Below are positions 5,361 to 54,406 of a stretch of 64,000 nucleotides of DNA, piece after piece. The first letter of the stretch is position 1, and each line of letters opens with the position of its first letter. A program made the position numbers and the translations under genes. The DNA is taken from NCBI GenBank assembly GCA_951406725.2, contig OX597815.1, positions 138,632,001 through 138,696,000 on the forward strand, written 5' to 3'. The notes under the pieces are model-generated. The model had not been told where the DNA came from and searched no databases. It saw only the letters and a list, made by a program, of their open reading frames with translations. Source of the DNA: Octopus vulgaris. Lineage: Eukaryota.

Positions 5361-7422
5361 ATATGTATTTATCAATGGAATATGCTATTTCCATGCAATT
5401 ATTAGTAGTTCCGATCTTTGATTCCAATTTATAAGGCAACGTAGTGGAACATGTTAATTATATGTTTTTACTCAGAAGAATGCAATGGAATATGTAAGCC
5501 AATCCTGACACAGATTGTACACTATCATACCAGCTCTGACATATGTTTCATAAAAGCACAGAAGACGGTTGAAAGACTGAAAAAACCCATTTATAGATCA
5601 AACAGGATTAATAACATACTGTGTGCGCGCGACACTTCTTAGTATTGTCGTTGAAGACAAAAACCTTGCAAAATACCAGGGTTTATATTTTCGCTGTAAT
5701 ATTATATTTTACTGAAATATTGCGGCCAACATCAGATAATCCTGCCACAATTTTCATTGCTTATAAAAGCAATAATAAGTATCATTATAATCAACAGGAT
5801 GGCAAATAGCTGGAAACCAGGATGATTGCATGGATGGTAATAAATTTATAAGGTGGGTAATATTTGTAAACGGATGATATTCCAGGTAACAGCAGATAGA
5901 GAAACAACGACGTTACAGAAGTGATACTTTCTATTTACTCCGATGGTCAGTGTCACTAATGGCGTCATGTATTTGCCAAACCTATTATCATACAGAATTA
6001 ACTTTGCAAGCAAAATCTCCAATGCTCTCGAGAATGATGGAGAAAGAAAGAAAAAGAGAGAGAGAGAGAGATTGTGAGAGACAAACAAAGGGAGAAAAAC
6101 ATAGAGTGAAAGGAGAGATAGATGGAAAGAAATTACAGAAAGACAGAAAGAAAAATGGTGATAGAAAAAGAGAGAGAGAGAAAGAAAGAAAGAGTGAGAA
6201 AACGAAAGAGAGAGAGAGAGAGAGAGAGAGATAATGGAGTTAAATGTAACGAATAAAATGTAACATTAATGGCTTTTATAGGAAGATTTAAAACGGGCGG
6301 AAAACAAAAAAAAGAATCAGTTTTTCAATTTTATTGTGTGATCTTAGGAGGATTGTTTTCTATTCCCCAGAAATGACGCAATGGATTCTAACCACGTGAA
6401 CATAGTTCCTTTTATCCTTCACAATCGCAGTAGTTAGAATTCATTTTAAATGCATTATTGTTATATTTCCGTCTTTAGAAAATTATAAGATTTCGAAGAT
6501 TAGTTCCTTGAAAGATTACTGACAAATGTTGCCAATGCTGAACCTAAATCCCAAGAGAAATGAGTAGGCTTTTGTTAGATCAATGTCGGTATAGCCATTT
6601 GCCTTCCATTTTAGATCCGGATTAACAACAATCGATATAATGATTTCTGATTTAAAGCAACAAACGTTGATCAGTTCACTTTTCATTTCAAAGTCATCAG
6701 CGATTTCACCAAAATTTTCTTCGAGATTTTAATATATCGATTTTATTTTCAAATTCAAATAATATACTTGGCATTCACTTGTTCTAAATTTGTAAGCCTC
6801 CCAGAGCGAACCTGAACTATATTTTAAATTTATGCTTTGTCATGATTATTGATTTCTTGAGATTAGACTTATGATCAACTTTGGAAGGAGAAACGGTATT
6901 GCTGATTGAATCATCGATCATAATATAATAGTGCTTATTTAATCGACTGCAGCTGAACGCAAGCCATCTCTGCAACTTATATTTATAATGTAAAGAGGAC
7001 AATATGAAATATTGTAAGACGTTCTAATGTTTTTGCCTAATTACAATTTCTCAGATTTATCATAATTACTGATTTAGTTCCTCAAGAGAAAAGGCCGATA
7101 TCTTCAGGGATGAACAGTTCTTTTAATTGAGCATAATATCTCATTTCTACTTATTAATGTCCCTTGATATTATGATTATCATTCAAGGTAACAAACGCGT
7201 ATTTGGCGATATGGTGGGTGTATTAGAATGTTCTTAAAATATTTAATATCATACGATTAATTTAAATTCTAGATTATTTTGAAGGTAACAATTCATTTCA
7301 TTTAGATAGAGTTGATTAAGTAATTACCAGTCTGATACAGTTATTGATTCAATCGGTTATACTCTTATACCTATAAAGGCTTCAGATAGTTAAGGAGCAA
7401 TGTTCATTTTCCACAAGAATTA

Positions 7423-7550
7423 CAGGGTGATTCAAAAGTCACCATACATAAGAAAAATTTATTTTTATAAGAAACAGTTAAATAAAAAAAAACTGTCTTT
7501 TATATAAAAAAAAAATTCTTCTTATGTATGGCGACTTTTGAATCATCCTA
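7423..7550. mobile_element. Tc1/mariner-type MITE (128 bp)
   Basis: 32-bp TIRs cagggtgattcaaaagtcaccatacataagaa / ttcttatgtatggcgacttttgaatcatccta (3 mismatches), TA on the left flank. Confidence 0.8.
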
Positions 7551-8939
7551 CATATCTCGGAATAGTGGGGTTAAACTCATTGTCGCATAATGTATTCAGC
7601 TGTGTCTATTATATATTTATATTTCGCGTAAGATAAAACGTTCGACTATATAACTAATATTGCTAAACACTTAGATGTTTAGGGTCGGTTTGTATTGAGT
7701 TATTTTCATGTTTATTTGTATCTTGGGTAAATATGATTTCATAAAAATAAATTATATCTATAAATTGATTAAATAATTGAAAAAAAATATGGCTTTGTCC
7801 TTAAAACTATTGTGAATAATTTTCCTCTATTTTATTTTCGTTCTTTTTGGTGCTGATATTCTTGTTTTACTTCTTTGTGAGCTGAACGATTTTAAATTCT
7901 CTCTGTATACTCATATGGTCACATTAGCTTGCTATCACCTACAAATCTGAAATGAATTACTTGGCTCTTTTCTCCGAGATTATCCTGACCATTATCTCGA
8001 AATACAAATTCATCAAAAGCTAATCCTTCGCTTCATGACCATTCTAACATCGAGCAGCTTCCAAGGTATTCCATGAAAGCCATGGTAGCTGGTCCTTCAG
8101 GTGTAAACTAAAGCTACTATTCCAAATATACATCCTTACGTGATATGGCCTGTGTTCGTTAAACCCTTAAAATAATATTGCGGAAGATGCACACAAATGT
8201 TATTATCATGCACCTATCACATAATCCTTCAAGTAAATATATTTCTTACTTGCTTATTTTACAATTTGGTCACGTTTATCTTGTTTTCTGTCATACATTA
8301 ACGATGAAGTAGGTTTCAATCAATTCACATAAATGCATTATCTTTATCATTTTATTTATTGCTCTCGCCGTTATCGTTAGTATCAACATTCTCACCACTG
8401 ACAAGGCTGTCACCACTATCACCACTGTGTCAGACAATAACTACACATGTCCCGATTACTATTAACAGTGTTTCTCTTTAGTAATAGTAATATTTATAGT
8501 ACTGATTTTATTGTTTCTAATCGCGAAGATGCGCGATGAAAGGCGTTCAGGTCGTAACAATCTTTTCTTTTCAGGGATACTCGAGACTTTAATAATCAAT
8601 GTTGAGTGATCACAAGGATATACCCTCGCTGGCCCGTCTTCGTCTTTTTTCGTCTGAGTATGTTTGATAAGCTTTGAACCCCTTATCTTATCAGTTGGCC
8701 TTGCTTAGTCCAAGCGTGCATATGGTCAAGTCAGCTACCAATCACCAACAAGAAATAAAGAGCAGAGCGTTCATAGGAAGACCTCTAGGCGCTTGTAAAA
8801 CTCCACTCGCTTCGCTCTTGTTAGGGCATAGACAGTTACTACTATAAAGCTATAACCTCCGTAAAGAGACTTTTCTTCCTCCGGCTAGTTGTGAACGTTC
8901 CCACAAGTCGTTTTTATATTGTTTTAGGAGAGGGTGTTA

Positions 8940-9850
8940 GTCTATTACTTCTACACAGTACATGAACAGTACTGTATCTTATCGACCCGGGATGAATGTA
9001 AGTCAAAGTAGACCGTGGTGTGATATGAACGCAGAACATAAAGATTTGGAACAACTTCGGGGGTGGTGGTAAGTCGATTACATCGATCCCAGTCCTCAAC
9101 TGGTACTTATTTTATCGACCCCGAAGAGATAAAATTCAAAGTAGGCCTTGGAATTTCTACTTAAAACGTAAAGACGGTCAAAATGCCGCCTTTGATATTG
9201 AAAACGGTTTCTAACTCAAGTATAAGTCCCGCAATTTTGAGGGGTTTAAACAAATTCATAGACTCCAGTTCGTGACTGGTACCTCATTTTATCGACCTCA
9301 AATTGATGAAAAGCAGAACTAACCTGACCGTGATTTCGTAACAAAATAGCCAGGACAAGCAGTACATGACAACTTGTCAGACAGTCTAATGATTATCTCA
9401 ACCCACCATCCTAATAATTGCATATGATTTAGTTCAACACCAGGAATTTTGACGGGCGAGGTTAGTTCATTGCATCAAATGAAGTGAAAAATAATATTGG
9501 CCTTGGCTGGATTTTGATTTATCATGTAAGGAATCGAAAGACTTACGGCAAAGAAATTTTCAGACACTCTTACGATTTTGCCAGTCAACTGCCTATCCAT
9601 TGTCCTTCTGATAATAATGAATGTTTCTAATTAAATCATTAGGCCAGCATCTTTATTGAATGACGGGATGAGGATAGATTAGCGGATACCATGGACGCCA
9701 GCACTTGAGTGGAATGTTATTTTATTGTTCTCGGAGGGATGAAAAATAATATTTACTTCAGTACGATTTGAACTCAGAATATAAAGAGCAGGAACAAATA
9801 CCGTGAAAACTTTTGTCTGATGTTGTAACGAATGTGCTAACCAATCGCTC
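8940..9850 (-). repeat. Head-to-tail array of about 4-5 decayed SINE family A copies
   Basis: Recurrent ctggtacttattttatcgacc...gaactcagaa-like blocks near 9100, 9277, 9500 and 9710. Confidence 0.6.
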
Positions 9851-11869: not shown

Positions 11870-12281
11870 TAAATATTAGGGAATAAATCCAAACTTACAG
11901 GGAAAAATCAGATTTAGGATTGAATCCAATTTTATAGTAAAATATAATATTATATTAAATTAGAGACAAAACCATTATTATGCAAATCAAACAAAGAAAG
12001 ACTTAAGCCAAAACATAAATTAATTTATATAATTTAGAAATCTAACAATTATTAATATCCACTACGATCGTTTCATGTCTTCTTTCATCAAATCTTTGTG
12101 TAGTAGACATTCATCAGGTGGTTGAATGTCTACTACACAAAGATTTAATGAAAGAAGATATGAAACGATCGTAGTGGATATTAATAATTGTTACATTTCT
12201 AAATTATATAAATTAATTTATGTATTGGCTTAAGTCTTTCTTTGTTTGATTTGCATAATAGTGGTTTTGTCTCTAATTTAA

Positions 12282-12285
<4 letters not shown>
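11870..12285. mobile_element. Palindromic PLE terminal-repeat insertion (160-bp arms 11954-12113 / 12123-12282)
   Basis: Near-perfect inverted repeat (about 5 mismatches) with a 9-nt spacer, between (TA)n tracts, containing an HHR. Confidence 0.8.
12059..12121 (-). ncRNA. Minimal type-I hammerhead ribozyme motif
   Basis: CCAC-CUGAUGA-AUGUCU(long loop)AGACAU-GAAA-CGAUCG-UA-GUGG: canonical core, palindromic stem III ACGAUCGU, GUA triplet. Confidence 0.85.
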
Positions 12286-12333
<48 letters not shown>

Positions 12334-16721: not shown

Positions 16722-17097
16722 ACATCTTTCGGTTTCCATTCACAGGGTTTTGGTCGCCCTGAGGCTATGGTAGCAGAAACTTTTGGTGCTACGATGTGGG
16801 ACTGAACCTAGGACCATGTGATTGGAAAGCAAGCTTCTTAATTCTTTATTGCCCACAAGGGGCTAAACATTGAGGGAACAAACAAGGACAGACAAACGGA
16901 TTAAGTCGATTACATCGACCCCAGTTGTATGTAACTGGTACTTAATTTATCGACCCCGAAAGGATGAAAGGCAAAGTCGATCTCGGTGGAACTTGAACTT
17001 AAAATTTAACGGCAGACGAAATACCGTTAGCACTTCGCCCGGCAAGTTAACGTTTCTGCCACCTCGCCGCCTTCGTAAGCTTCTTACCACACAGCCG
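16722..17097 (-). mobile_element. SINE family C (ggctgtgtggtaagaagcttgct...ggttcagtcccac) split by a family A insertion
   Basis: Homologous to 25480-25851; the halves rejoin across the TSD aagcttctta. Confidence 0.7.
16841..17076 (-). mobile_element. SINE family A nested in SINE C, 10-bp TSD
   Basis: TSD aagcttctta at 16831-16840 and 17077-17086. Confidence 0.85.
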
Positions 17098-20321: not shown

Positions 20322-20521
20322 TTAAAATTTTGGCACAAGTTCGGGTGAGGGGTGAGTTGATTGCATCGCTCTCAGTGCTCAACTGGTATTTATTTCATCG
20401 ACTCCGAAAGGAGGAAAGGCAAAGTTGACCTCGACGGAATATGGACTCCGAGCGTAGAGATGGGCGAAGACCCGCTAAGTATTTTGCGCAACGCGAAAAC
20501 GATTCTGCCAGCTCGCCGCCT
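20322..20521 (-). mobile_element. SINE family A
   Basis: Ends in ctgccagctcgccgcc; homologous to the other copies. Confidence 0.8.
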
Positions 20522-25877: not shown

Positions 25878-26301
25878 ATTTCTTTACTACCCACAAGGGG
25901 CTAAGCTAAACACAGATGGAACAAACAAGGACAGACAAACGGATTAAGTCGATTATATCGACGCCAGTGCGTAACTGGTACTTATTTAATCGACCCCGAA
26001 AGGATGAAAGGCAAAGTCGACCTCAGCGGAATTTGAACTCAGAACGTAAAGACAGACAAACTACCTATTTCTTTACTACCCACAAGGGGCCAAACACAGA
26101 GAGAACAAAGAAGGACAGACACACGGATTAAGTCGATTATATCGACCCCAGTGCGTAACTGGTACTTATTTAATCGACCCCGAAAGGATGAAAGGCAAAG
26201 TCAACCTCGGCGGAATTTGAACACAGAACGTAACGGCGGACGAAATACGGCTACGCATTTCGCCCGGCGTGCTAACGTTTCTGCCAGCTCGCCGCCTTAT
26301 T
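25878..26301 (-). mobile_element. SINE family A partial dimer bounded by one 13-bp TSD
   Basis: TSD acattttatacct at 25865-25877 and 26302-26314; full unit ~26065-26297 plus a 5'-truncated unit ~25878-26060. Confidence 0.8.
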
Positions 26302-44399: not shown

Positions 44400-44840
44400 C
44401 AAATTCTGGCACAAGGCTAACAATTTCGTGGGAGGGGTAATGTGATTACATCGACCCAATTGCTTGACTGCTATTTATTTTATCGACCTCGATAGGGCAA
44501 ACGGCAAAAATCGACCTCAGCAGAATTTGAACTTAGATCATAAAGAGGACAAAATGTCACTAAGCATTTTGTCCGGCATGCTAACGATTCTGCCCGCTCG
44601 CCGCCTTAACCTAGGAACTAATACTGATTTCAAATTTTGTCGCATGGCCATCAAGTACGGGGGAGTGGGTAAGTCGATTACATCGGCCAGTGCTCAAATG
44701 GCACTTACTTTATCGACCTGGAAAGGATGAAAGTCAAAAAGTCGAACTTGTCGGTATTTGAACTCAGAACTTAAAGACTGACGAAAAACTGCTAAGCATT
44801 TTGCTCAGCGTGCTCACGATTCTGTCAGCTCGCTGCCTTA
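44400..44840 (-). mobile_element. Two head-to-tail SINE family A copies
   Basis: Units ~44400-44607 and ~44625-44838, each ending in ctcgc(c/t)gcctta. Confidence 0.75.
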
Positions 44841-46150: not shown

Positions 46151-48687
46151 ATTGAAAAATTATTTTAATGGTGTGAATTGGTATGTATATTTGGAGATAG
46201 CTTTTTAGAGGCCCCTGTATTAGTGCATATCTTTAGGATTTCCTCCTCGTCTTTCTGTATACATCAATATATTCTGTTTTTGATGTCATATTAAGTTTAA
46301 TATTCTTTCTATACACTAGAAACATGCTGCTGGGCACTCCCGTTGATAATACATGTTATAGAATGCTTCGCTTGACTGAGTAGAGAAATGCACGAAATAA
46401 TATGAAATCTAAGTTTGGGACCAAATATAATCTCCTTCGTCTAAGATATTCAATAAAAACTCATCATGGAAATATTCCATTCTCATTAATACAATATGAA
46501 TTCTATTATCTACGAGTGCATGTGAGTAAAATTTATGTAAAATACTAGAAATACTCAAGCACTTGCGTTAGAGGTACAAATTTAGAGCAAAGTAGATTGG
46601 AATCTGTTAATATAGAAGTATATTTATTATTAATGTAACCAACAAAATTTTGAAGCTCCCCAGTTTCTGTAAATGCAGATATAAACTTAACTTCTATAAA
46701 TCTGCCAATCATATCTAGTTTCTATCAATTGAATTCGAATCAATAATAACAAGAAAACATGCTGTTGTAGAGTAAAAGCTGTTGTTAAAATAAAATAAAA
46801 GTAATGGCTGAATAATACAGAATCCTAATATATATAATAGAATGCCTTCAAATCAATATAGTTTGTGTTTTAATGGTTTCTGATTGTGTTAAGAGATACG
46901 TAGAATTATTATGGATCGATGTGGTTCTAAACCTATCTGGCGTACCGAATTAAAAAAAAATAATATTGCTTTATCTTGATCACACACGCAATTGAAACTA
47001 TGAATAAGCCATTGTTTTCACATTTTGGCATTTCCTTATTTTATTCGAACAGTTGTCCCATTAATTTATAACACGAGAAAAAAAAGACCAGTTTCAATGT
47101 ATAGTGTATGAACTTAAATACCATATACATTAACGGCTTCGAATCATACAATTTATTTTTGTAGAGTTCAGGTATTATCATACAGTCACCGGATTCTCGA
47201 TGTTACAACTATAGTCCAGACATATTTTGTTACACATGTGCTGTTTTTGTTGGTAAAATCAAAGCAAAGATACAATACACTTTGTTGTTAGAGTTTATCG
47301 TGATTATATCAGAATAAATCTGAAATGGGGATCATAGTAAAAAGCGAGTTTAGCTTTTGAGATTTAACATTATATCTTCTCAAATGTTCAATGAGGAAAG
47401 TATTCAGAACAGAAATATGATTCTGCCTTTCTTGTCAACTTGACTATTCTAATTCAGATCCAATATCAGGCAACGGCGTTGTTTACGAAGCGAGCGAACA
47501 GAAACTAACCCAAGCTGAACTGAACACTTCAGCTATGGATGTAAGTCTATCCGAGAATTCCATAGAGCTTCTAAGTGATCTCTATAAGAGAACAAATAAT
47601 TGGTATTCGGTATAACCTTGGTTTGGTAAAGAAAGTGCAAGAAAGTTATTGAATCATACTTTGCAAAAGAGTATGTCTGAATATTTTGAAAAGACATTTC
47701 AGGATTGGTGTGTGCAAGCCAGGCATCGAAAACCGAACAAATAACTGAAGGTCGCTTATTGATTTTTCTATGTCGTGAAGGAGTGTTACTTGTTGAAAAG
47801 AAACTTATAATTTTAAAAAAAAATCTGCTAAAAATAAATATAGAGATTTGATTGTCACTTGCCTAGCAATCAGAGCAGACCGAAAAGCTTTATATGTTAT
47901 GAGAATACAATTGGGTCTCAGAAAGAATCCTGATTCGAAGGACATTTTATATGACCAACTAAGTAGAATCAAAATGTTTATACTATCATTGCATATCATA
48001 TTGATTTGCTAAAGTGATATGTAAAAGCAGCGAACATTGATGATATGGGTTTCATTTATTTACATAACAGGTATCCACTAGGAGATAAAGGGGAGTGTTT
48101 CTTTATAGGGCTGTGATAAGAAGATTACGGTTAGATGAATATCTCACAAATTTCAAAAGTAAAAAAAAAATGTTTAATAGAAACAAAGTGTAGGGTTTCA
48201 TTTTGGGGATAGTATGAAATTCTTGTGAGAAATTTTTCAGTGTCTTGCGATATATTACGAAAGGGAATGTTGACTCCTTATTTTCACATACACACCAATC
48301 CTTCGACAATTTATTGTAAAAATAAAAGGAGAAAATTTCTTCCACAATATATCAAAATTACGGATATACGATACTGTAGCCTATGTCACTATTACAAGAG
48401 GAAAATAATTCTAGTGTTTGTTATGAGATCTGCCTAATGTACAAGGTAAGAACTCATTTCCCAAGAATGGATTTGTATTAATGTATAGATAACTTCATTT
48501 TCCCAATATCAATCCTTAAGTTGTGAGGTATACTTGCCATCTCAATATGGCTAACCACTAAGGGTGGGTGTTACTGTAGCTTGTAGACCCAGGAGAACAT
48601 CGTCTCCAGCTGGCTTTAGGCACACTTTCTGTGCCCTTATGGTATTTGCAAAGGGAAGTCATCCTTCCCTCGTCAACCTAAGTGATA

Positions 48688-48732
48688 CGCACGGACTGCA
48701 GTTTCTAGGTATTAACCTGTCCTCAGCGTACG
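48688..48732 (-). ncRNA. Minimal type-I hammerhead ribozyme
   Basis: CGUACG-CUGAGGA-C-AGGU(uaau)ACCU-A-GAAA-CUGCAG-UC-CGUGCG: 6-bp stem I, canonical core, palindromic stem III ACUGCAGU, GUC triplet. Confidence 0.88.
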
Positions 48733-48917
48733 ACTAACACCGGTTTTCGATTAATTCTTTATTACGATTATAAAATCAGTACATAGAAGAACAATACAGG
48801 ACATACATACAAAAATAGTTAAGTGGTTCGTTTAAAAATTTAAATTGTCCTTTGCATTGACTAATATAACATTACATTAGATTGAAATCTTACCGATATA
48901 TTTTAAACCCCGGCAAC

Positions 48918-51900
48918 CTATAAGGCCCCGCAGCTTTCCTTTCCTCTTCTCCATGCATAGTTAAACTGGGTTTCTGACACCCACCTTTTTCGCCACTTCC
49001 TTCCATCTTTTTCATACACATCTCGTGGTAAGGTCTTCTTTTCCAGCCCCATTTTGCTCTTCAGATGATATCTGAAGTAAGTGAGCAAGCCGGGGCCTGA
49101 GACAAAGGATCCTATTGCGACTCCTTCCATTCTTGTACGCCACATGCATTCTTTTACTACTGAAACCGTGCAGTGAAAGCATGCCTCACCTTCCTTCGAG
49201 AGTCCAGTTGGCGGTATCATCTTAATCATAGGCTCAGCCGACAGCTGTACTCATCCCAGATGCGATAACACGTGTTCTGCGTAACTTATCAAGTCTGACA
49301 ACTGCCGACAGTGTACAAAAGCATGCTGGACGGTTTCATCGTCCAACCCGCATCTTGGACATGTCGGTGTTACTGAAATTCCGTGCCGCGATAACTTCTC
49401 GCGAACAGGTAAAGCATTCCTATAACACTGCCAGGCCAGGGATCTTTGGAAATTATCCAAATACCCCGTCCTGAAAGTCTTTTTAAACAGGTTGGTAAGC
49501 TGGTCCTCATCGAACCCCAGAGCCCCTCCTAGGACGTCGTCGTTCTTTGCCTCTACCAGCCTGCTATAAAAATACCGAGGTGGTATTTCCGCAGCCGGCC
49601 TTGCCCGCCTTGTGGATCAGCGTGAGTGCCTGTCGGCACTCATTTTGCCATAAAGTCAGATTCCGTCTTTTGATGCAACCGGGTTTAAAATTCACTAAAG
49701 AAGCCGGTCTCGGGAAAAATTCCCCTGCCAGCGGACTCCACACCTTATCACCCTCCAGGTGGTGCCAGAGATGCTTCAGCCTCAACGCATGTCTGCGCAT
49801 CATCAACCAAGGCATTCCTAACCCACCCTTTAACGGTTCCTGGCAGCAAACGGAGCGCCTCACAAGTGGCTTTCCTCCCTTCCACAAAAAGCGGAAAAGG
49901 ATTCGCTCCAACTTGCTAAGCCATGAATTGGGGCAAGGGACAACGGTCAGGCGGTAAGTGATTACAGATGCAATGAACATCTGTACCACCTCTGCTCTTC
50001 CTTTCAAGGACAGAAACCTTCCGGACCAGGTCCGTACTATGGCCTCCATCTTGTCCGTCACCTCACTCCAATTCCTCTCTGTTTGGGAGTCTGGCCCAAA
50101 CCAGACTCCTAGCAACTTAACAGGACCATCTGTCCAGTGTCCCACGGCACTGGACGATATCAACTTGCTCCTCCAGGAGCCGAGGCGTAAGCCAATCGAC
50201 TTGTCCTTGTTAACTTTTGCTACTGCCACCACCTTGTATCCTCTGATAGCATCTTCTACACAAGGTAGCTGAGCCTCATTGGACACGATGAGGATGACGT
50301 CATCCGCATAAGCAGAAACCGTCCTCCCGCCTCCGATCTGATCCGGGTTACTTCCCAGCCTCTCCAACTTTCGCAGCAATGGCTCGAAAGCCAACACGTA
50401 CAAAAGTATGCTTTCCCTACAAGTTTCTCCACGACAGTCGTCAACCTTTTTGCCAACACCTTGGCCAAAATCTTTAACTCTACATTAAGTAGAGTTATGG
50501 GCCTGTAATTACTAATGTTATCCCCCTTGCTCGGGTCTTTCTGGATTAGCGTCACCACTCCCCGGCTTACAGAACTGGGAATTCTCCCGTTCTGCTGCCA
50601 GTTCGCGTAGACGCCTGCCAGTATTCCCCCGAACAAGTCCGGCATACTTTGATAAAATTCGTAGGGCAGACCATCCAACCCCGGCGACTTCTCCCCGGCG
50701 CATCCGGTCAGTACCCCCTCTATCTCAGCGGGAGTGATCGCTCCTTCACAGCACTCCACCTCACGCCCCGAGAGCCGCGGTCCGCCGGCTAGGAAGTCCT
50801 TTAAGGCCCTCCCCCGCTGCAGCGACCCCCCCCCCGAACGCGCGGGCGAAATGCTGGTGAAGAAACTTTTGCATCTCCTCCTGTCCATAGATCTTGTGTC
50901 CCTGTTCGTCAGTTAAAGACTTGATTGAAGCTTTGTTACCTCTCTGACTCTCCACTCGACGGGCCCATCCGGCAACGTTAATACCTTCTCGTTTCCCTGC
51001 GCGTAGCTTAGCTTTAACTCTGCAACCTTCGTGTTTGGAGTTAAGGTGACGGTACAATACCGTCCTTGCCGCCATCACTCCGGATGCAGAGCCAGATTCC
51101 ATTGCCTCGTTTAGATTCTTAACTAAATCGTCCTCTATCCTAGACCTATCTAACCTTAGCTGATTGCTAAATCTAATGGACTCTGAACGAATGGCTCTTT
51201 TGATGGAGTGCCACCATCTATTGTTAATGATGGTGCCACATAATGCCCTCTGTACTAACACCTTAATCCGGGTACGGAAGTCTTCAGAATTCAAAATAGA
51301 CTTGTTCAGCTTCCAGTACCCGGGTCCCTGTCTATGGCACTTATCTAATTGCACCCTACAAGTCACGAATTTGTGATCCGTGTAAGGCACAATGTGAAAC
51401 TGTGGACAACTAAACGTATCTTTATATCTTTTCCTAACGAATATCCTATCTATATACGATCTGCGTGAGCCGTCGTTGTTACTCCAAGTCCACTGTGGAA
51501 CGCTCGGCTCATCCAGTCGATAACGGTCTACTAGATTAAAGCTCTATAGTAGACCCTTGAGGCTAGGGTTCCCCTTCCTATTGGTTGGGCCAACACTGTC
51601 GACCCGCGCTTCGAGGACAGTGTTAAAGTCCCCTACTAAGACTACCGTTTTCGACGTGAGTAAAAAGTGCTCCAGATTCCGAAAAAAACCCGACTGCCTA
51701 CATTCATTCGGAGCGTAGACAGCTACCAACCTGAATGACTGTTTACTAACGTGGGTCACATCCAGAACGACCAGCCTGCCTTCTGGGTCCAGAAAGACAG
51801 TACTTACCTGCAAGTCCAAGCTCTTCCTGATAAGGACTGCCACGCCCCTTCCTCCTCCTCGGCTAGGAGAAATAAATTTCTCGAAACCATTTAGAAGAGG

Positions 51901-52041
51901 CGAGAACGCTTGGGACCCGTTCATCTTGGACTCGGTTACAATAGCTACGTCCACTCCGTGTGTCGTGAGGTCGTTCAGGAGACAAATTTGTTTCCATTTC
52001 GACCCCATTCCACGCACATTCACACAACCCAGCTTTGCCAT
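48918..52041 (-). pseudogene. LINE ORF2 (AP endonuclease, reverse transcriptase, C-terminal Zn finger), disrupted
   Basis: NVRG, TES, GDFN, SYIDRIF, TDH (APE); WKLN; KSPGLDG, YRPITLLN, YVLAFEPL, YADD (RT); CPRC..ETVQHAFVHC. Has stops/frameshifts and an internal RT deletion near 50405-50412. Confidence 0.92.
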
Positions 52042-52087
52042 TGTCGGAGAGAGAGAAAAAAAACTTACGGTTGGGACAAGGAGCATG

Positions 52088-53498
52088 ACAGTTTAAATCT
52101 GCATGCTTCCCCTTCTTCCTGCCTTGTGGTCGTAGCTGCAGAGCTCTTAACCGGCGTTGCCATCGGGCTCTGGGTAGGTGTGGTTGCCGGGGTTATAGTT
52201 AGTTTGCCCTCCAGTATTTCGTTAGTTACGTCTCTGATAAGGTTATTTTTAAAATGTTCTTGGAGTGTTTTTTCCTACCACTCGTCTTCCTTTATTTTTG
52301 CAAAACGAGTTGTCGACTTAGTGTCTGCAGACTTACTGAATAATTTCAGTTTTGAAAATTTAAAATACTTAAACACTCTATCGTTCCTCTCGTCGAATGC
52401 TACAATCTTTTCATTTTTTTAATCAATTTTTTCCAATCTTGTTTGATGGGGAGGGGCTTGGCGAACTGTGTTCCAATGAATACAGTGCCGTGGGGGTAGG
52501 GCTGGGGAATTTGTTTTGTATGTATCTCTGCGGTGTTTGCTGATTTTTTCTTTGTTTGGGGAGGGGAGTCCAGGGTATTTTCTTTTTTCTTTTGTGTGTC
52601 ACCTGTGTAAATTCCATTTGTTCATTTTTATCTTCCGTTTCGATTCCCTTCCTTGTCGCAGTCTTGGGGTCTTTTTCGCCTTTTCTTTTTCTGTATTTGA
52701 AGCACTTTGAGGAGGGGCTTCGCTGTTTTTCTTTTTTTTTATGCAGTTCGAGCGGACGTGACCCTTTACACCTCATTTGAAACACCTAGGTCTGCGCCCC
52801 TCCACTGACACTCTCATTGTAATTCCCTCCTCAATAAATACCCTATCAGGTAAGTTTTCTAGCACATTATTTTCTGCTTAAACGAGGAGTTCGAGCGCTT
52901 GTCCCTTCCAGTTTACCTCCTCTTTCCTTTTCATCTGCAGAATTGAGACTTTCTGCTCTACGTCGTGCAGAACCGCCGCTGCTACCCACATTATATCATA
53001 TCCTCTTGGTATGTCTTCCACATATAGTTTCGCAGTTCTTTTGCCCATATAGGTAGGTAGTAACATGATGTCCTCACTTTTTAAGGTCATCAATGAAATC
53101 TCTCTTGCCACATCAGCCGAGTCGAAATATGCTTCAACGGTAGCGCTGCGGGTACCTCGACCGACGTAGCGAATTTTGCTCCACACCGGGGACAAGCACT
53201 TCCCTACTATTTCGTTCTTCACGTCCATTATTTTCTTCTCTTTGTTACTGTAAACCTTGTACACGACTGTCTTGGCCTTTATTTCCTGTAATATCGCTTG
53301 CGGCGGTACCAGTTTTATTTCGTTGCCTTCCTTTTTGACCAAGTTCCGGTATTCGAACAACTGTTCTATTTTGAATTCCACTTCCGTTACGGTTCCGCCC
53401 ACTGCGGCCGAAAAAGACTGTTTTCTAACCTCGATATCCTTCTGTTCGCCTTTTCCCATCACGGGAAAGTCGCTCCTCGACGCCAAGTCGAACTCCAT
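52088..53498 (-). pseudogene. LINE ORF1 (gag-like, CCHC zinc knuckle), disrupted
   Basis: The 206-aa ORF continues past the TAA at 52878 into VEGRRPRCFK*GVKGHVRSNC (CX2CX4HX4C with one Cys mutated to TGA) and a Lys/Pro-rich tail. The 3' boundary is approximate. Confidence 0.8.
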
Positions 53499-54406
53499 TT
53501 CTCAAATTATGAGAACCAATTTTTCAAAAAAAAAAAAATTACCCCGAAGGTAATAACAATGTTTATACACAGAATTTTCTGCCCCGTAGGGCGAAAATTA
53601 CTGTCACACAACGGACAACTGTTCAATTCACGAGCAAACACAAACAACGACGAACAAAAAACGAACTCACTCAACAAAATAGGCAGATGAAAGAGGGGTC
53701 CCTAGACGAGTCAAAACACCGGTTTTCGATGAAAGGAGTCCCAATGCAAATACTTATATCGTTTTTCCAGTAACTTTTCGTCACTGATCTCGAAAAACTG
53801 TATGCAAGCAATAATAAATCTCTGAACGAGGTATAAACAGTAACTGCACGACAATGTGAGGTATACTTGCCATCTCAATATGGCTAACCACTAAGGGTGG
53901 GTGTTACTGTAGCCCCAGGAGAACATCGTCTCCAGCTGGCTTTAGGCACACTTATACCTCGTTCAGAGATTTATTAATCCTTCAGTTATATGTGCGTTTC
54001 TGAAACTAAAGGGAATAAATTGTTTCTGTCTTTTTCTTTCTATGCTTAGAAATATCTCACACATAGATATAATACCAGTCATCTCCTATTTTCAATAGTC
54101 ATAATGAATTTAAAGCAGTTACATTTGACTCAGTACACATCGTCCAGCATATCATTTGTCCTGCTTTAATTATCAGACGAATTTGTTAAGGATATACAGA
54201 ACAGTAGAAAACTAGAGGAATCCCAATCAGGCAAAAGTACGTATCTGGCTATACCACTCTGTCTAGAGAAAAACTGCTATTGATATATTGGGTGGGGTAT
54301 TATATACTACGTCAGGAGGAATACCACAGTATCTGACTTTTCGTTATGTATCTGAACTAAATAAGATACACAGATTTACATACAGAAAACACACACACAT
54401 ACACAC

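Follow-up and report, generated by a model that had tools for sequence, protein, structure and literature searches.

Among LINEs (long interspersed elements) with an APE-type endonuclease, the closest described systems are those specific for another mobile element: Tx1L, found in Tx1D of Xenopus, and the crocodilian families Tx1-Mar, Tx1-8_Crp, Tx1-4_AMi and Tx1-9_AMi, whose targets, in the available part of the source, are DNA or long terminal repeat (LTR) transposons (PMC4494074). Here we describe a LINE family of Octopus vulgaris, family A, which likewise inserts into a mobile element, but whose target is a hammerhead-bearing retroelement and whose insertion site is a predicted start of small nuclear RNA (snRNA)-type transcription. 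It was recognised in a 64,000-nt stretch of contig OX597815.1 (positions 138,632,001 to 138,696,000; hereafter the window, in whose coordinates features are given). Tandem insertion at the duplicated site occurs in both the Tx1 systems and the octopus LINE; R2 is co-transcribed from a host promoter, on which the octopus LINE would likewise rely in the reading preferred below, and co-transcription from the flank is discussed for SINEU (available part of PMC4494074).

Two further groups are relevant. Keno and Utopia are U2 snRNA-gene-specific LINEs, like a sister subfamily of the related octopus family B, but their 3' flank runs from U2 nucleotide 39, whereas the octopus sister is joined at nucleotide 1 with the whole of U2 behind it (PMC4640811, in part). 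Identity with Keno was rejected on these grounds, family A not being at U2 and the sister subfamily lying at nucleotide 1, not before nucleotide 39. Non-LTR retrozymes and newt satellite 2 consist of 170–400-nt units with a type I hammerhead, like the octopus host repeat (PMC7229834 and PMC2220036, each in part), and a Penelope origin has been proposed for the retrozymes (PMC7229834; 10.64898/2026.07.22.740005). The available portions of these papers mention no targeting LINE; the host repeat is known here from sequence alone. No description of a LINE targeting a retrozyme was found in the literature searched, which lay outside Repbase, subscription journals and supplements, and the accessible text of PMC13282606 lists L1-Tx1 families without mention of ribozymes.

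A LINE at one site of a hammerhead repeat

The preliminary description of the window reported a LINE of about 4.96 kb inside a retrozyme-like element and co-oriented with it, and this holds: the copy occupies 4,963 nt of the minus strand, from 53714 to 48752, between two copies of a 16-nt direct repeat. Its 3' end was also read correctly as AATAAA, GAATTA, the target duplication, AGT and hammerhead stem I (from 48732), with no poly(A). The perfect 16-bp duplication is present at both window junctions, but the core duplicated across the family is 14 nt; the final TT is local, since the LINE itself begins with a T-run. The ACCGGT palindrome within it is dispensable, being absent from other targets. 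The window copy is dead, with a 308-bp deletion in the reverse transcriptase (RT), about 43 bp gone from the 3' untranslated region, stops and frameshifts, the full-length element being about 5.3 kb. No intact family-A ORF2 (ORF, open reading frame) was seen in 54 loci, where the longest pieces were 961 and 1,032 aa, and this decay of all copies seen limits direct assays.

Copies were collected genome-wide with an exact 29-nt pattern from the LINE 3' end, blind to the flank, which gave 37 matches, all of them retrieved. Every one lies at a single site of hammerhead-bearing repeats of about 355 bp: 32 directly before a repeat of the window type, two in a second hammerhead family and three in tandem, running into another LINE via the same duplicated site. 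Similarity searches, in each of which 40 candidates were scored, brought the set to 46 distinct family-A 3' ends. Left out before counting were L131 (an inverted duplicate, present only in the 37), L142 and L144 (overlaps), as well as L126, L136, L137, L139, L140 and L143, which have no intact family-A 3' end. Poly(A) and untemplated letters are absent from all 46 ends, and all are followed by ATCG or a one-letter variant. The junction is at offset 0 in 41; in the other five it lies 2–3 nt further upstream with letters matching the locus's own 5' flank, while the LINE end itself stays fixed. The two copies of the 14-mer are identical in 23/38 loci, and variants are mostly matched within a locus. 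Family B, about 84% identical to family A over ORF2, occupies the same site with 17–18-nt duplications in 13/14 ends. Set against Kojima's flank criterion of >20% (PMC4494074, as given in the available part), the on-target share is thus 37/37 for family A and 13/14 for family B.

Such a pattern could also arise by hitch-hiking, if a single insertion had multiplied together with its repeat, either through segmental duplication or through the enzyme that mobilises the repeat. Two cases are of this kind: L092 and L136, 80 kb apart, have upstream structure in common, and L117/L131 involve a 3' piece duplicated in inverted orientation. Across the family, however, the LINE 3' ends are a median 97% alike (ORF2 blocks about 96%) against 80% for the flanks, the two are uncorrelated (Mantel r 0.02, p 0.39, n=40), and no near-identical outer flanks were seen among the 40 loci compared, so the copies represent independent insertions. 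The duplication variants agree locus by locus, 5'-truncated copies break at different points, and a second repeat family has also been invaded. These observations refute hitch-hiking, to which we assign virtually no probability. The preliminary proposal that the family targets a ribozyme retroelement therefore stands: the tally of flanks that it suggested finds the same target downstream and different outer flanks from locus to locus, and neither unrelated flanks and poly(A) tails nor duplication of a single insertion, which it named as contrary outcomes, was found. Judged from these alignments, target specificity is real, and ribozyme retroelements form a new target class for site-specific LINEs.

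The target as a predicted snRNA-type start site

Upstream of the target lies a short motif, a predicted proximal promoter element, at the distance at which U1 and U2 genes carry it. ATCAGT starts at −56 to −62 in 23/25 U1 loci and in 23/30 U2 loci (30 of 56 matches), and, these loci often being neighbours in arrays, in 21/23 and 17/23 when only distinct ones are counted. It starts in the same interval in 24/30 empty repeats (30 of 289), in 14/22 of the second repeat family and in 41/43 family-A 5' flanks, both misses being inner copies of tandems, compared with 51/20,000 random anchors. The target has a predicted proximal element at the U1/U2 distance. An snRNA-type promoter has been described for another hammerhead repeat, newt satellite 2 (PMC2220036, in part).

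We consider it probable, at roughly 70%, that the LINE inserts at one exact site of the repeat which is likely an snRNA-type transcription start, and that it borrows the promoter found there. The ribozyme would then accompany the chosen promoter incidentally and not as a requirement. In such a scheme, the endonuclease would nick at about +1 and +14, aided by the upstream promoter context (either sequence or a bound factor), and the host promoter would give an RNA starting with the 14-nt duplication and continuing into the LINE, whose 14-nt leader could anneal to the target overhang so that the 5' junction is completed. The RNA would extend some way into the 3' duplication, its end being set by AATAAA-directed processing or, where this fails, by the hammerhead. 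This likely adds a strategy to those of site-specific LINEs, namely to insert at +1, borrow the promoter and leave the host unit whole downstream, and the finding also suggests where a mollusc-type retrozyme has its promoter.

Several loci bear on the order of events and on the RNA leader. In the tandems L101/L144 and L130/L227 family A is the later arrival, since the three letters that follow family B are those of the original target; it took the promoter-side copy of the duplicated site, with a LINE and no hammerhead behind it (L143/L091 is informative by parsimony only, and other tandems are uninformative). Among 19 informative family-A loci, the 5' duplication is clearly shifted toward the commonest leader in L091, L095 and L124, and L109 and L138 are ambiguous cases; the sequence further upstream is unaltered. 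This fits an RNA that began with the donor's leader.

Copies of the U2 sister subfamily are 95–96% identical to family B and are joined at U2 nucleotide 1 (position 1 of the Rfam model). Their duplication is 14 nt long, and what follows is an entire U2 coding sequence and no hammerhead. A search with the leader pattern gave four U2-inserted copies (loci L283, L284, L288 and L291–L295), and in all four an extra, second 14-nt leader, ATCG...GGTG, separates the U2 duplication from the start of the LINE; it looks like a captured earlier target. At L290 the same 14 letters occur in a possibly diverged repeat. In SART1Bm a short target-like RNA can set initiation (PMC7265360, in part). It is conceivable, if rather unlikely, that the lineage as a whole lives on snRNA-type start sites and that host-derived RNA flanks (the 14-nt leader and a hammerhead-cut 3' end) would set the target more than the endonuclease does, permitting jumps between ribozyme repeat and U2 almost without protein change. 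Two subfamilies so alike with different targets make the long-standing problem of target choice and switching in site-specific LINEs testable, whether by endonuclease, promoter-bound factor or RNA flank.

A number of points weigh against the borrowed-promoter reading. The common motif is just 6–7 nt and its promoter role is deduced from position; the excess of the motif at occupied over empty sites has p=0.004 without the two tandems and p=0.058 with them, the empty sites having been picked by a pattern. The 5'-truncated copies L104 and L132 have no motif upstream, one of the 14 family-B ends (L190) is off target, and family A was not seen among the 30 U2 and 25 U1 loci. An internal LINE promoter may be an alternative source of transcription, and gene conversion could produce the same leader changes. 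The evidence from tandems comprises two loci and that from leaders three to five, interpreted after the fact.

Ordinary endonuclease specificity would dispense with the promoter altogether, the LINE recognising a short site resembling ATCG-N4-YY-GG with T-rich bases upstream, and promoter and ribozyme being bystanders. The three targets do have ATCG in common, mostly with GG at +11/+12, the nick offsets depend on the family (14 nt for A, 17–18 nt for B), and between family B and the U2 sister the endonuclease has one changed residue in the predicted hairpin loop, as placed by alignment. This loop shapes nicking in L1 and Tx1L, and in vitro nicking by the Tx1L enzyme is almost confined to its target (PMC1950540, in part). 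Yet the short motif occurs at 2 non-targets in 177 kb, by extrapolation tens of thousands genome-wide, and despite such matches 0/46 family-A ends are off target; the 55 nt upstream of the three targets have little in common beyond the −58 motif, and the family-B and U2-sister endonucleases, with their different targets, are almost identical. We regard endonuclease recognition by itself as an improbable explanation and prefer nicking helped by promoter context.

A further family, D, was observed at L213, L218, L215, L285, L286, L287 and L327–L336. It is about 1.6 kb long with no ORF2 match. Besides other targets, it occupies U2 nucleotide 1 and, in each of the two hammerhead repeats, the site used by the LINEs; it is likely a non-autonomous, ORF1-only partner.

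The hammerhead and its possible use

The window hammerhead has its core from 48726 and GAAA at 48705, so that predicted cleavage falls 58 nt downstream of the LINE end, as first reported. The accompanying claim of an intact ribozyme is right for the motif, but at its foot stem II of the window subfamily carries a non-canonical C.A, and 'intact' is accordingly to be read as a motif-intact, predicted ribozyme. For the window motif Rfam gave no hammerhead match, whether at the gathering score or with E<=10, and when the hammerhead 61-mer is folded, its minimum-energy structure is not a hammerhead (z −1.39). Among 70 distinct copies examined, 55 could be parsed; the 3–8 pair is U-A in 28, C-G in 23, U-G in 4 and C-A in none (the numbers refer to copies and not to events); most variants have a palindromic stem III. 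Switching between C-G and U-A together with a palindromic stem III is what would be expected of a selected minimal hammerhead, an identification drawn from motif and covariation.

The host repeat has the format of a non-LTR retrozyme, with a unit of 170–400 nt, a type I hammerhead motif and both tandem and dispersed copies. One array holds 10 units of 355 bp; the genome contains 289 exact empty sites and at least 3,668 exact motif matches, or about 0.05% of the genome (by multiplication, a lower bound). The window copy amounts to about 1.3 units of ~350 bp, because parts of its two flanks repeat each other (Table 1). The cleavage site is not where repeat ends accumulate: 3' ends cluster at unit positions 231–236 and 273–282, and 5' ends are scattered. 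In dispersed copies (L145–L174 and the occupied loci) the two 3' positions are A/T-rich and inverted 5' pieces are frequent, a pattern that could fit priming on circular or multimeric RNA. The second hammerhead family (L175, L192–L211; 2,512 first-look candidates) combines a CCGA-type core with the upstream motif described above, and other LINE-like 3' ends occupy its matching site.

The preliminary description gave this hammerhead an active part: read-through RNA would be cut by it, and its 58 target-homologous bases would anneal to the nicked target. Ends without poly(A) or untemplated letters at all 46 loci are as read-through annealing would give, and a hammerhead motif is recognisable behind 32/41 family-A ends, but cores are no better kept there than at empty sites (27/30). 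At L189/L330 a family-B end is followed by the duplication and by hammerhead sequence exactly to the cleavage triplet, then by another element; this junction is, however, the only one in ten such loci, and 39 kb of sequence did not reveal its far end. A near-identical sister inserts at U2 with no ribozyme behind it, and in all families seen AATAAA precedes the cleavage site. The five offset junctions with a fixed LINE end are not predicted by in-register annealing, and at L102 in-register pairing was available. Release of a 5' end by the ribozyme is not general either, since about 5/41 occupied loci extend back as far as a hammerhead on the 5' side. The sequences argue weakly for use of the ribozyme, and hammerhead trimming of read-through RNA, though possible, seems doubtful as the priming mechanism. 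R2 has a ribozyme of its own, encoded at the 5' end, and in R1Bm there is read-through with target-derived RNA flanks; the ribozyme of the octopus system belongs instead to the host repeat and lies 3'.

The junction just mentioned (L189/L222/L330, G000:C16, ~20.78 Mb), where the hammerhead up to its cleavage triplet is joined to a family-D-like element, is possibly the fossil of a cleaved RNA end and is unique among 10 related loci. Contigs of four presumed-RNA runs, which cannot show RNA ends, cover the repeat and the LINE 3' end, with no junction-bridging contig among the matches listed. DNA contigs of four runs (organisms A–D) cover the element in 30/30 bins, and none of those listed spans the junction by 31 nt on both sides.

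Of the three-tier system first envisaged (Penelope, retrozyme, LINE), the LINE in a retrozyme-like repeat is present, but the Penelope tier was not found near the repeats. Among 31 ORFs near repeats, one combines RT and GIY-YIG; that Penelope family has no terminal repeat in common with the host repeat (30 loci, to 1.5 kb past the ORF). It is very young, 33 of 40 scored copies being identical over 753 nt (L135:148–1665, minus strand, and L296–L325), the common 3' part of these copies lacks a hammerhead motif, and it was rejected as the partner, being unrelated to the repeat. Inverted 5' pieces are common in host repeat copies, and by analogy with the retrozyme literature a Penelope partner remains likely (available parts of PMC7229834 and 10.64898/2026.07.22.740005).

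Classification and features of the window

Family A has the L1/Tx1-type architecture, with ORF1 and an ORF2 comprising APE endonuclease, RT and a C-terminal zinc domain; a CCHC zinc knuckle was found in ORF1 of copy L136, the same ORF as the window remnant. The best solved-structure match of ORF2 is human L1 ORF2p (E 2e-63). An RT tree of 61 rows gave no supported grouping with P0008, automatically named Tx1-like and the tree's one named Tx1 protein. Architecture and one named match make membership of the Tx1 clade likely. A more distant relative (67%) lies on the reverse strand of L144 at 6700–9800, its 3' end outside hammerhead repeats.

Table 1. Features of the family-A insertion and its host repeat in the window
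Feature	Position	Strand	Remark
Family-A LINE copy, both ends present but decayed	48752..53714	-	308-bp deletion near 50409, stops, frameshifts
ORF1 remnant	52060..53498	-	lower bound approximate
ORF2 remnant: APE endonuclease, RT pieces, zf-RVT	48961..52041	-	PF03372 6e-10; PF13966 7e-11; PF00078 pieces, scoring below cut-off
5' target duplication copy	53715..53730	-	family core 53717-53730; predicted first bases of LINE transcript
3' target duplication copy	48736..48751	-	family core 48738-48751
AATAAA	48758..48763	-	6 nt before LINE end; no poly(A) tail
Minimal type I hammerhead motif, palindromic stem III	48688..48732	-	predicted cleavage after 48694
ATCAGTG motif, predicted proximal promoter element	53782..53788	-	58 nt before target, as in U1/U2 genes
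Host repeat, upstream part	53731..53953	-	no upstream hammerhead in window copy
Host repeat, downstream part	48522..48735	-	48522-48627 repeats 53855-53953 (93%)

Elsewhere the window DNA is (TA)n-rich. A dispersed SINE-like (short interspersed element) family, which we take to be of octopus type, occurs at 8937–9151, 16905–16986, 20353–20434, 25945–26210 and 44438–44519, and an inverted repeat of 181 nt (92% complementary, with a 9-nt spacer) lies at 11933–12303.

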